A stretch of DNA of 64,000 bases from a bacterium (GTDB lineage Bacteria; UBA8248). The stretch lies in NCBI GenBank assembly GCA_965213685.1, contig CBDBZY010000003.1, positions 224,001 through 288,000 of the forward strand, read 5' to 3'. A model generated the notes under the pieces. It was given only the letters and a program-made list of their open reading frames with translations, did not search any database and had not been told where the DNA came from. A program made the translations under genes and the position numbers. Numbering within the stretch: position 1 is the stretch's first letter; the number at the start of each line of letters is the position of its first letter. This document shows, in pieces, positions 11,191-49,765 of this stretch.

Positions 11191-11202
11191 GGAGGCTCGG
11201 CG

Positions 11203-11331
11203 GCCGCTGCCCTGTCCGACCGGTGGCGGACGCGCCCGGATATGGTGAGCCGCCCGGGCCGAGCTTCTCTCCTTTTTCTCGGAACTCCTCCGCAGCCGCT
11301 GCCCTGTCCGACCCGTGGCGGACGCGCCCGG
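11203..11331. repeat. Two 37-bp direct repeats (11203-11239, 11295-11331) around a 55-bp spacer
   Basis: GCCGCTGCCCTGTCCGACC(G/C)GTGGCGGACGCGCCCGG, 1 mismatch; internal palindrome GTCCG...CGGAC. Confidence 0.9.
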
Positions 11332-44423: not shown

Positions 44424-45176
44424 ATGAATTTGAGCTGGATCATCGGCGTCGTCATCGTGTTGCTGTTTTTCGTCAGCGCCATCCGCGTCCTGAACGAGTA
44501 TGAGCGCGGCGTCATCTTTCGGCTGGGCCGCTTCTACGCCACCAAGGGGCCCGGTCTCATCATCGTGCTTCCGGTGATCGATCGCATGACCCGCGTGGGC
44601 CTGCGGCTGGTGACGATGGACGTGCCGCCGCAGGATATCGTCACGAAAGACAACGTGTCGGTGAAGGTGAACGCCGTGGTCTATTTTCGCGTGCTGAATC
44701 CCGAGCGGGCGATCATCGAGGTGGAGGATTTCCTCTACGCCACGGGCCAGTTGAGCCAGACCACGCTGCGGAGCGTGCTGGGCCAGATGGACCTGGACGA
44801 TCTGCTGTCCGAGCGCGAGAAGATCAACACCCAGCTCCAGGAACTCCTGGATCACGCCACCGACCCCTGGGGCATCAAGGTCACCAACGTGGAGCTGAAG
44901 CACGTGGACCTCCCCAGCGAGATGCAGCGCGCCATCGCCCGCCAGGCGGAGGCGGAGCGCGAGCGCCGCGCCAAGGTCATTCACGCGGAAGGCGAGTTCC
45001 AGGCGAGCGCGCGGCTTGCCGAGGCCGCCACCGCCATCGGGCAGGCCCCCGGCGCGCTGCAGCTGCGGTTCCTGCAAACCCTCTCCGAGGTCGCGACCGA
45101 GAACAACTCGACCATCGTCTTCCCCCTTCCGCTGGATTTGCTGCGCCCATTCGTGGAGGGAGGCGGACGTAAGTAG
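44424..45176 (+). CDS. Slipin/stomatin SPFH-domain protein
   Basis: [29 protein letters not shown]. Confidence 0.95.
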
Positions 45177-45263
45177 GGGGGAACGAGGGGGGAGGTCGGG
45201 GCCGGCGGCGGCTGGCGGATGCGGGCGGGGCCTCGTCGCCCGTTTCGGCTTCCGGTGGCGCGG

Positions 45264-45602
45264 CTATCGCTTCAACTTCCGGAGGAAGGCGGCCGCCTCC
45301 TCCGCACTGCGAAGCACCTTGTCGTTGTAGTGCGTGATTTGGTTGATCTCTATGCGGTTGCCCGATTCGTCGAGGAGAACCAGATCCTCCAAATGGACGC
45401 CGACGAACCCGTTGTCGCGCAAGGAGCGCATAATCGCCCCCGCGATGCAGAAGGCGCAGGCGAGTTCGTCGGAGCTGAGGGTCGGCGCCAACTCCCCGTT
45501 TTTCTTGCGGACCACGGCGAAATGGCCCTGAACCCACCCGACGTCCTCAAGCAGCCGGGCGGCGCCTTCGAGAACGTCATTTTGCTCTTCTCTGCTCAGC
45601 AT
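45264..45602 (-). CDS. Small hypothetical protein (DUF6197-like, phage-type)
   Basis: 112 aa; GWVQG...FCIAGAI...YND motif pattern; family name is from recollection. Confidence 0.55.
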   Translation of the reverse strand: MLSREEQNDVLEGAARLLEDVGWVQGHFAVVRKKNGELAPTLSSDELACAFCIAGAIMRSLRDNGFVGVHLEDLVLLDESGNRIEINQITHYNDKVLRSAEEAAAFLRKLKR

Positions 45603-45626
45603 GGCGGTTTTCTCCGATGGGCGCCC

Positions 45627-45731
45627 CGATCCCTTTCTGGCGTGCTTCCGCGCGTTTCAGGCTCCACGACGCCCGCCCCCTCATGGCCCATGACGACGAT
45701 TCCTTTCTGCTGTGCTTCCGTGCTTTTCAGG
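45627..45731. repeat. Repeat-spacer-repeat: two 35-bp repeats (30/35 identical) around a 35-bp spacer derived from a zinc-ADH gene
   Basis: CGAT(C/T)CCTTTCTG..GTGCTTCCG.GC.TTTCAGG at 45627-45661 and 45697-45731; the spacer reads VVMGHEGAGVVE on the minus strand. Confidence 0.8.
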
Positions 45732-45966
45732 GGGGTGAGGAGCAACGTTCCGGCGGCAGGTTTGCTCCCATGCAAGCGCGCAACCCGCTCTCGCCGCCTC
45801 GCTCGGATATGGAATGGCGGCGTGCGCGCCTTTCATATGCCAAACCAGAGAAACCGAGGAATAACCGTATCCATTATCACACACGCATGCAGATTGCCAC
45901 GCGACCCCATGTGCCGGCGGGACGGAGCGCCCTCCGCCGGGGTTTGTTCGCCCGCAGGAAGGTGCA

Positions 45967-46473
45967 TCAGTGGCGAAAGCCTGCGGGGTCGCGCCGGTCG
46001 AACGCATCCCCCCAGATGCCCCGCCGGAAGCTCCTGGCGACGTTCTCGGCTTCTATCAGCTCCTTGCGGTAGCGCACGTTGGGGTGCTTGACGATGGCGC
46101 GGCCCAGCCCTCTGAGCACCATCAGCACGTTCACGTGCGCCCCGTCCGGCAGGAAGACGTAGTATTGCGTCCGTCCGTGGTCATCGACGAGTTTCTTGTC
46201 GAGCTCGAGGGTCACGGTCGTGTTTTCGAGCAGGCGTCTCAGGAAGGCGCGCGCCTCGGTGCTGCCGGGTGCCCCCGGCCCGGGCGCGCCCACCCCGATG
46301 AGGGAGGAGCGCAGGCCGCCGCCCAGCTGGAAGCTCGCGCCGTCATACACCCTGGCGACGCGCGCGGTGAGGCGCTTTCGGAACGGCGCGTCATCCTGGG
46401 CGCGGGCGGCGGGCGCGCCGAGCAGGGCGGCCATGGCGAGCGCGCAGAGAAGCCGGGCGGTTTTTTGCGTCAT
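45967..46473 (-). CDS. Thermonuclease (SNase) family protein with a signal peptide
   Basis: RVYDGAS, LIGVGAP, DDHGRT, A...RRGIW; several catalytic residues look degenerate. Confidence 0.8.
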   Translation of the reverse strand: MTQKTARLLCALAMAALLGAPAARAQDDAPFRKRLTARVARVYDGASFQLGGGLRSSLIGVGAPGPGAPGSTEARAFLRRLLENTTVTLELDKKLVDDHGRTQYYVFLPDGAHVNVLMVLRGLGRAIVKHPNVRYRKELIEAENVARSFRRGIWGDAFDRRDPAGFRH

Positions 46474-46859
46474 CGTCTCATGGCCTCTTGGTGCCGGTGG
46501 TGATTCTTTCGGGCAGTCCGTTCGCGCGTCCTGCCCTCTCCCGCGCGGATGTTTGGTTGCGACGTCTGACGCCAAGGCCCCCCGGGCGAAACGCTCCGGC
46601 CGCCGCACCCGCAGCACCGCTCATGATACCACAGGCGGAGAGAGGCGGTTTTTGTCGGCCCACAAGAGATGTGGAAGCGGCGGATGCGCGCAGCGGATGC
46701 GGTTCTCTGGCGCCTTGCCCGGACGGCGGGGAAACGCGCGGCGTTTTCTTGTTGCGCCCCCTTTTTGTTGAGATTCCAGGCTGGTTGCCCCTACAATGCG
46801 GAATCGCGCCGGATGCGCTGCGCGCGCGGGTTCATCTTTTCTGGTTCCGGAGCGGGCAC

Positions 46860-48737: not shown

Positions 48738-49765
48738 GAGGGGCGATGCGGGCGGCGGTCTATTACCGAAACGATGACGTCCGGGTCGAGGAGGTGGCGA
48801 GGCCGCGGGCCGGGGCCGGCGAGTTGCTGCTCCAGACCCGCGCCAGCGGCATCTGCGGCAGCGACGTCATGGAGTGGTACCGCGTCGGGGGCGCGCCGCG
48901 CGTCCTGGGCCATGAGGTGACGGGCGTGGTCGCCGAGGCGGGCGGCGGGGTGGAGAATTTTCGGCCGGGGGATCGCGTGTCCGTCACCCACCACGTGCCG
49001 TGCAACCGCTGTGCGCACTGCCTGCGCGGAGACCACACGGCGTGCGAGACGCTTCGCGCCACGAATTTCGACCCGGGCGGCTTCTCCGAGTTCATTCGGG
49101 TGCCCGCGCGCAACGTGGCGGTCGGGACGTTTCATCTGCCCGATGCCGTCTCGGACGAGGAGGGCGTGTTCATCGAGCCGCTCGGCTGCGTCCCTGCGCG
49201 GCTGGAGGCGCTTGCGGATGACGCCGGGGCTGTCTGTCTTCGTGGTGGGGAGCGGCGTCTCCGGCCTGCTGCACGTCCCAGGCCGCCGCCGCCCTGGGCG
49301 CCGGCCCCGTTTTCGCGGCGGACGTCCATCCCTACCGCCTGGAGGCCGCCCGGAGGTTCGGCGCGCGGCCGCTCCCCCCGTGCGAGCGGATGGATGAGGC
49401 GCTGCGGGAGGCGAACGAGGGCCGCCTGGCGGATCGCGTCATTCTCTGCGCCGGCGCGCCGGCCGCACTGGAAAACGGCCCTCTCGTGCGTCGCGCCATG
49501 CGGCGTCGTGCACCTGTTCGCCCCCGCACCGCCGGAGCACCATCCCCCGGTGGACGTCCACAGAATCTGGCGCGAGCAGATCGCCATCACCGCCACCTAT
49601 GGCGCGGCCCCGCTCGATTTGCGGGAGGCGATGGCGCTGATTCGCGCGCGCCGCCTGCCGGTGGAGGAGCTGATCACCCACAGGTTGCCGCTGGGGGACG
49701 CGCAGGAGGGCTTTCGGCTTGTCGCCCGGGCCGGGGAATCCCTGAAGGTGGTGCTGACGCCCTAG
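48734..49765 (+). CDS. Zinc-dependent (sugar-alcohol type) dehydrogenase, several indels
   Basis: GICGSD, LGHEVTG, CNRCAHC...C, EPLGC, ITHRLPL. Confidence 0.88.
   Translation: MRGAMRAAVYYRNDDVRVEEVARPRAGAGELLLQTRASGICGSDVMEWYRVGGAPRVLGHEVTGVVAEAGGGVENFRPGDRVSVTHHVPCNRCAHCLRGDHTACETLRATNFDPGGFSEFIRVPARNVAVGTFHLPDAVSDEEGVFIEPLGCVPARLEALADDAGAVCLRGGERRLRPAARPRPPPPWAPAPFSRRTSIPTAWRPPGGSARGRSPRASGWMRRCGRRTRAAWRIASFSAPARRPHWKTALSCVAPCGVVHLFAPAPPEHHPPVDVHRIWREQIAITATYGAAPLDLREAMALIRARRLPVEELITHRLPLGDAQEGFRLVARAGESLKVVLTP

Follow-up and report, generated by a model that had tools for sequence, protein, structure and literature searches.

The window, by which we mean the whole 64,000-nt stretch analysed here, corresponds to C3:224001-288000 of the assembly G000, and at 45627-45731 it contains a small repeat-insert-repeat unit (alias C3:269627). 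The gene neighbours of the unit encode NfeD, SPFH, DUF6197, SNase and HD proteins. Placed 25 nt upstream, the unit occupies the 5' leader of a DUF6197 gene that encodes 112 aa on the minus strand (45264-45602; PF19698, E 6.6e-12; phrog_762, function unknown). Both the gene and the unit are held by a species-specific insertion of about 680 bp (45250-45930, borders approximate, no strand assigned). On the left the insertion is flanked by an SPFH gene on the plus strand (44424-45176) and on the right by an SNase gene on the minus strand (45967-46617), both of which are conserved through the genus. The relatives match these flanking genes only, with a gap of 173 bp in the closest relative (G001) versus 829 bp here. 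The DUF6197 gene was found in none of the 41 other genomes of the family, and its protein was not found in genome_contigs or metagenome_contigs, from which its own record was possibly omitted. A single promoter-like site was detected on the minus strand at 45873-45900 (GTGGCA, a 16-nt spacer and TG-GATAAT), compared with a mean of 0.1 in shuffled sequences, and it is a match to the consensus only. If used, this site would put the unit in the mRNA leader of the DUF6197 gene, which is where an earlier interpretation of the same DNA (the sequence-only reading) had placed it.

The intergenic region between the SPFH and SNase genes is also a genus-wide hot spot of small repeats. In the relatives L018 (G022, ~640-900), L012 and L013, four to five tandem elements of about 55 bp (CCGTATGAATCGGCTGCAAAGGATT...) lie between the two genes.

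The unit itself consists of three parts of 35 nt each, none of them assigned a strand. The first copy of a duplicated 35-bp target (R1, 45627-45661), used as the reference copy, adjoins the ribosome-binding region of the DUF6197 gene. It is followed by the insert, or 'spacer' (45662-45696), and then by the second copy of the target, which is decaying (R2, 45697-45731). A repeat search of the window aligned R1 and R2 in direct orientation with 30 of 35 positions identical (86%, five mismatches), and their starts are spaced by 70 nt, so that exactly 35 nt are enclosed. When up to three mismatches were allowed, R1 occurred once in the window, and none of 100 shuffles contained any match. Read on the minus strand, 45662-45700 encodes IVVMGHEGAGVVE, inside a 59-aa ORF at 45596-45775. 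The sequence-only reading had described two 35-bp direct repeats with five mismatches around 35 bp, as well as a minus-strand reading that resembles an alcohol dehydrogenase (ADH), and both descriptions were reproduced. It had also set the insert apart from the ADH gene inside the window (LGHEVTGVVAE). This distinction held as well: the in-window ADH is a different paralogue, and its DNA is 87% alike over 30 nt only (window 48901-48930).

A search of the whole assembly identified the origin of the insert at the nucleotide level. The insert matches C43:97172-97206 of its own genome at 34 of 35 positions (E 1.2e-9), and the parent ORF on C43 carries ADH_N and ADH_zinc_N domains, which identifies it as a Zn-ADH; the copied piece is the region of the GHE zinc motif. 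Within the 35 nt the identity is complete except for one base, and from the first base outside it falls to chance level on both sides. In a side-by-side alignment there was no extension past either border, so the ADH similarity ends at the repeats, as the sequence-only reading had maintained, and the parent gene whose existence it had left to be checked was found in the same genome. The plus strand of the insert is antisense to the coding strand of the ADH gene. Matches to the insert with up to three mismatches were present in eight of 51 genomes of the phylum, all of them from its own genus; a search of metagenome_contigs, from which its own record may be missing, gave no match. The sole mismatch between insert and parent falls on a synonymous position of a glycine codon, where the insert has G and the ADH gene of this genome now has T. 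The G is also found in six of the seven matching relatives of the genus. The simplest reading of this pattern is that the insert was copied from the ADH gene of this lineage and would preserve an older allele of it.

These borders bear directly on the possibility that the unit is what remains of a decayed pseudogene (ADH or other), or a chance likeness, combined with an unrelated local duplication. Motifs of the GHEGAGVV type are common and codon usage is biased, and a ketoacyl-synthase-like gene (C43:116326-116402) aligns over R1 and the insert together, at 75% with E 3.2e-4. However, this similarity across the junction comes down to a shared 17-nt stretch coding for EGAGVV with an extension at chance level, and R1 alone matched the synthase locus with E 0.41, equal to six other random matches; the synthase gene was rejected as a source. 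The sharp drop of the ADH identity outside the insert also speaks against a relic. Moreover, a simple tandem duplication would have repeated the insert too, and the insert is single. We therefore regard a pseudogene relic or chance likeness as extremely improbable and close to refuted.

The duplicated target showed no sign of belonging to a dispersed repeat family. No copies of the repeat were found elsewhere in its own genome. With up to three mismatches it was present in none of the 41 other genomes of the family, and its exact degenerate pattern was present in none of the 185,579 species genomes of genome_contigs (own record possibly omitted). Many REP-like copies of the repeats, which the sequence-only reading had named as evidence against its proposal, were thus not encountered.

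The history of the two copies was examined by comparing strains, for which contigs of public runs were aligned on the window at 44700-46500. In one run (X1) the unit is identical and lies in a 15.6-kb contig. A second strain (X4) carries the unit in a 17.2-kb contig that differs by 28 substitutions and 24 gap letters over 1.8 kb. In X6, a run of another study, R1 and the insert are covered by a 267-nt contig that stops at the start of R2. The unit is therefore real and not an artefact of assembly, since contigs of three runs contain it, that of X6 in part. No allele shorter by 70 bp, as expected for an empty site, was seen at the unit in four runs. Between strains, R1 shows one difference (T45634C, in two other strains) and the insert shows none. 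The R2 of X4 differs from that of the window at 45708, 45710, 45711, 45721 and 45724, and at 45710, 45711, 45721 and 45724 it has the base of R1, which accounts for four of the five positions at which R1 and R2 of the window differ. By parsimony, R1 and R2 in the common ancestor of the strains would have been identical at about 34 of 35 positions, with one position differing. Because the ancestral copies would have differed at only one of 35 positions, R1 and R2 appear to have begun as a duplication and to be drifting apart now.

The four substitutions of R2 at 45710, 45711, 45721 and 45724 are clustered within 15 nt, and the insert next to R2 is free of differences. On the plus strand, two of the four change base pairs of a small hairpin from G-C to G-U. 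In this strain, the four clustered substitutions exceed the rate of the neighbouring sequence, which counts against reading the unit as a scar.

The strain comparison also bears on whether the unit works as a mini-CRISPR, as a cr-like or antisense RNA acting on the ADH gene, or as a control element of the DUF6197 gene. Several features are in line with such a role: the insert's plus strand could pair with the ADH mRNA at 34 of 35 nt, the insert shows no differences between two strains and R2 shows five, R1 has a 5-bp hairpin that is partly kept in R2 through plus-strand G-U pairs, and the unit sits in a gene leader. Nevertheless, zero differences in 35 nt are a weak signal at this divergence, with too few sites for selection, and R2 is decaying. 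The sole promoter-like site transcribes the sense copy of the ADH piece. By global alignment score, the repeats of the unit resemble neither of the two resident CRISPR repeats, and no cas gene lies near. An Rfam search of the unit returned no match, and the predicted folds of the two strands are less stable than those of shuffled sequences (z = +1.28 and +1.08). The guide or antisense RNA unit that the sequence-only reading had offered as its second option thus goes unsupported, with repeats unlike the resident ones, no Rfam match and no unusual fold. We consider a functional role of any of these kinds highly unlikely, and the best reading is that the unit is decaying and shows no sign of function.

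The genome does, however, encode machinery for spacer acquisition. The high-GC part of the assembly comprises 49 contigs (3.07 Mb) and holds two CRISPR loci; Cas1 is encoded at two loci of the genome. On C48 lies an array of 163 repeats of 36 nt, with spacers of 35-42 nt (mode 37) and a unit period of 71-78 (mode 73). Beside this array lie genes for Cas3g (E 3.2e-200), a Cas4g/Cas1g fusion (E 1.2e-224), Csb2 and Cas2, and the locus is a type I-G system. The locus on C5 has a 36-nt repeat, 30-nt spacers and the second Cas1, and represents a type II-C-like module. The cas1 and cas2 genes, which the sequence-only reading had proposed to look for, are accordingly both present, as Cas4g/Cas1g and Cas2 on C48, and the canonical lengths there (36-nt repeat, 35-42-nt spacers) fit the 35-nt parts of the unit. 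With its 35 nt, the insert suits the I-G module and not the one with 30-nt spacers. A spacer of 35 nt is found seven times among the 161 spacers of the C48 array; the period of 70 is just outside the canonical range (none of 162 array units), and the duplication is 35 nt long versus 36 nt for the repeat. None of the canonical spacers of the two arrays (161 of them from the I-G array) matches its own genome over more than 22 nt. Deriving a PAM from the canonical spacers was impossible for the same reason. The absence of such matches is consistent with self-derived inserts surviving only where no crRNA is made.

Two side observations concern the assembly and the array. A further 22 contigs (C2, C4, C7, C16, C18, C41, C51, C64 and others) amount to 4.9 Mb, more than half of the assembly, with a GC content of at most 0.60; they are rich in microsatellite-like repeats (CACACA, TCCCTCCC) and look eukaryotic. 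It seems that a high-GC bacterium of about 3.07 Mb has been binned together with host or other DNA. In the C48 array (C48:16385-28400), the first two repeat positions vary in long blocks (GC, GT or CA) and the last repeat position likewise changes block-wise (G, C or A), a record of how the array has grown.

Globally, the unit is one of a group. We scanned the high-GC contigs (3.07 Mb) for isolated two-copy direct repeats with at least 26 of 30 identical positions, a spacer of at least 15 nt and periods of 36-200. The scan returned 28 loci, of which 20 had a period of 66-80 and ten a period of 71-75; compared with a uniform spread, the peak at 66-80 has a binomial p of 2e-15. Three more units, C24:78594, C24:79109 and C45:15431, came from other routes, giving 23 units; the two on C24 had been left out of the period scan, lying near each other. 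These two (C24:78594-78705 and C24:79109-79217) are independent units about 500 bp apart in one intergenic region. A further candidate, C29:98795, was considered as a three-repeat neo-array and dropped as an ordinary tandem repeat, since its 'spacers' also repeat. The window contains another direct repeat, of 44 nt (41/44) around a 48-nt spacer at 11196-11331 (C3:235196), whose period of 92 places it outside the CRISPR-like period class.

In about a quarter of the units (6/23), the insert corresponds in size to a spacer and is copied from a distant gene in the same genome. Apart from the unit in the window, whose parent is the ADH gene on C43, these are C29:36927 (parent C14:13168-13206, 36/39), C30:5188 (parent C31:91881-91917, 37/37), C1:561 (parent C12:62059-62099, 38/41 with one gap), C24:79109 (parent C19:31799-31837, 39/39) and C45:15431 (parent C43:50666-50700, 35/35). 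In these six units the repeats are 33-38 nt and the inserts 35-41 nt long. Four other units, C3:37176, C14:46503 and C59:1464 with a period of 66 and C58:88736 with a period of 67, fit the sum of a 36-nt repeat and a 30-nt spacer (66), and no self parent was found for any of the four. The units of period 66-67 may be ectopic integrations by the type II-C-like module.

As a control, we applied the scan to G001, a genome of the same genus that has no Cas1, covering 2,687,465 of its 3,087,465 bp (all but the 400 kb, or 13%, at 2.4-2.8 Mb). Among the relatives, G002, G010, G014 and G015 carry an I-G-like Cas1, others have the II-C-like Cas1 alone, and 12 lack Cas1 altogether. The scan found 15 isolated two-copy repeats, none of which had a period of 66-80 or, indeed, any period below 93. 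The difference between this genome (20/28) and G001 (0/15) has a Fisher p of 3.3e-6. An identical scan of the low-GC contigs gave a broad spread, with 24 of 116 loci at periods of 66-80, and because of this spread the peak is not a product of the scan method. A dependence of the units of period 66-80 on Cas1 is suggested by this one control genome.

For several siblings, the state before insertion was visible in relatives. A single copy of the target with no insert was present in all seven aligned loci for C30:5188, whose target is the last ~30 nt and the stop codon of a conserved gene, and in all five aligned loci for C24:78594, whose target spans the start codon of a gene. The same was true of all three aligned loci for C45:15431, where one further locus had no anchor. 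For C29:36927, a single target copy was present in one aligned locus, and four others had no anchor; where matches to both flanks were listed in relatives, they overlapped by 16-31 nt, which is the pattern that two copies mapping to a single stretch would give. These four sibling units with empty sites are therefore insertions that duplicated their target. Several sibling units coincide with the start or stop of a gene, which remains intact thanks to the duplication. At the unit in the window, the insertion target is the leader of a recently acquired small gene. No empty site was found at this locus in relatives, since the host island is unique to the species and absent from all of them.

An insertion can be built in more than one way. 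Template switching with microhomology, in which about 35-40 nt are copied and synthesis is re-primed upstream, or an unknown enzyme that adds about 72 nt, could also produce an insert between duplicated flanks, and the match to the CRISPR period would then be a mere coincidence. Microhomologies of 2-4 nt are indeed found at the junctions of the units on C29 (TG, GG), C24 (GATG) and C1 (GTC). However, template switching has no ruler, and the periods nevertheless cluster at 66-80, similar to the 71-78 of the array. The inserts are spacer-sized in all six units with a parent, and the Cas1-less genome of the same genus has no unit in this period range.

The choice of targets and of captured fragments speaks to both sides of this question. 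The duplicated targets, including that of the unit in the window, shared a mean of 14.7 identities with the I-G/II-C repeat, versus 15.2 for random 36-mers; targets that are not repeat-like would be expected from such another insertion process. A likeness between the repeat ends and the I-G repeat (9/16, top 0.9% of random) was tried as a signal, and it was gone across the 23 units. The lack of a PAM at this unit also favours another process: the ADH protospacer is flanked by CTC and CCA, with no TTN alongside on either side, so the flanking PAM that the sequence-only reading had suggested looking for did not turn up. By contrast, in five of the six self-copy units the parent has TTC at a distance of 0-3 nt from one end of the copied piece. 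In the parents of the C24 and C30 units, TT stands directly before a C that was copied, and in those of the C29, C1 and C45 units the offset of TTC is 2, 3 and 1 nt, respectively. The background of TTC is 0.16 per event, and five of six gives p = 5e-4 in a test that was defined post hoc. In the published work on the type I-G/I-U module of Geobacter sulfurreducens, Cas4/1 is described as selecting a TTN PAM, with spacers mostly of 36 bp, and a TTN PAM is given for 50% of the unique array spacers (PMC6547450). PAM-less spacers are thus common even in arrays. Overall, we regard template switching or an unknown enzyme as unlikely, if less so than a functional RNA.

Taken together, the unit is likely to be a scar left when a CRISPR integrase, most likely the type I-G Cas4/Cas1-Cas2, inserted a spacer outside the array (ectopic integration). 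The fossil ectopic integration proposed in the sequence-only reading is supported by the similarity that ends at the repeats, the parent at 34/35 and the lack of other repeat copies. The proposed sequence of events has three steps. The integrase would first have taken up a piece of 35 bp from the Zn-ADH gene of its own cell. The two ends of this piece would then have been joined to the 5' leader of the recently acquired DUF6197 gene, at staggered sites separated by 35 bp, and gap repair would finally have left a copy of the 35-bp target on either side of the insert. A crRNA is not expected from the unit, because its duplicated target does not constitute a CRISPR repeat; the self-matching insert would therefore be harmless there, and the unit would simply have drifted. 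We infer from these results that the agent was Cas1-Cas2, that the I-G rather than the II-C-like module was involved, and that the unit is functionless. The presence of about 20 unrelated units of the same build argues for a shared mechanism of origin and not for a shared function, which further reduces the appeal of a functional RNA.

For the genome as a whole we lean, with somewhat less assurance, towards the view that the I-G Cas4/1-Cas2 integrated off-array repeatedly, leaving at least 20 scars in a 3-Mb genome that form an unfiltered record of capture and could seed arrays. If this is true, scars that make no crRNA would record what the integrase captures, unfiltered by self-targeting, and they would also supply, in nature, a stock from which new CRISPR arrays could be seeded. 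The questions at issue are the origin of new CRISPR arrays and the natural miss rate of the integrase. This genome provides a clean natural case, with a parent identified, an age bracketed by strains, about 20 siblings, four empty sites among them and a Cas1-less relative that has none. For type I-G, the choice of off-target sites, the share of self-derived prespacers and the fate of the units become measurable. For annotators, an isolated repeat-spacer-repeat with a self-matching spacer need not be a functional array.

The arrangement can be compared with several known systems. Target-site duplications of transposons and casposons are 2-15 bp long and surround an element that has ends of its own and usually a transposase. 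The unit resembles them in that a staggered cut followed by gap repair would duplicate the target, and differs from them in having a 35-bp duplication around a 35-bp piece of a housekeeping gene. Viral mini-CRISPR arrays, solitary repeat units and repeat-like regulatory RNAs share with it the repeat-spacer-repeat order and a spacer that matches another locus. As described in the published accounts, however, mini-CRISPRs and repeat-like RNAs use recognisable CRISPR repeats, many of them in cas loci (PMC7099407, 10.1101/2023.03.03.530964), whereas the repeats of this unit are unique local sequence far from cas genes.

The I-G (I-U) system of Geobacter sulfurreducens, as reported, shares its gene set (Cas4g/Cas1g, Cas2, Cas3g and Csb2) and a spacer size of about 36 bp with the system found here, and its TTN PAM has a counterpart in the TT-containing motif beside five of six parents, all of them parents of sibling units (PMC6547450). 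By contrast, that study covers integration into the array, and here the parent of the unit in the window has no TTN and the motif of the siblings is offset by 0-3 nt. In vitro, Cas1-Cas2 of Pyrococcus furiosus was reported to perform full-site integration at non-CRISPR DNA with repeat-length spacing; the sites used were weakly repeat-like (best 43%) and kept positionally conserved repeat-like bases (PMC6698737). Our unit shares with that assay the non-CRISPR target and the repeat-length spacing, and departs from the plasmid assay in two respects, as the targets here are no closer to the repeat than random sequence and the events are fixed in a genome.

The closest parallel is the off-target Cas1-Cas2 integration that forms 'neo-CRISPR' loci, described by Nivala, Shipman and Church (2018, Nat Microbiol; via 10.1101/148544, PMC7054753). 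According to this account, the work used the type I-E system of E. coli with over-produced Cas1-Cas2, and the natural evidence it reported for off-target integration was circumstantial and came from two other species (10.1101/148544). Like those loci, the unit combines a spacer-sized insert with non-CRISPR DNA duplicated over the length of a repeat, and cas1-cas2 are present in the genome. Unlike the E. coli loci, it is natural, is probably of type I-G, can be traced to a parent gene of its own genome, and belongs to a set of about 20 units in one genome. The unit is thus a natural instance of the neo-CRISPR kind known from experiments in E. coli, and what is unusual about it is the number of its siblings in one genome.
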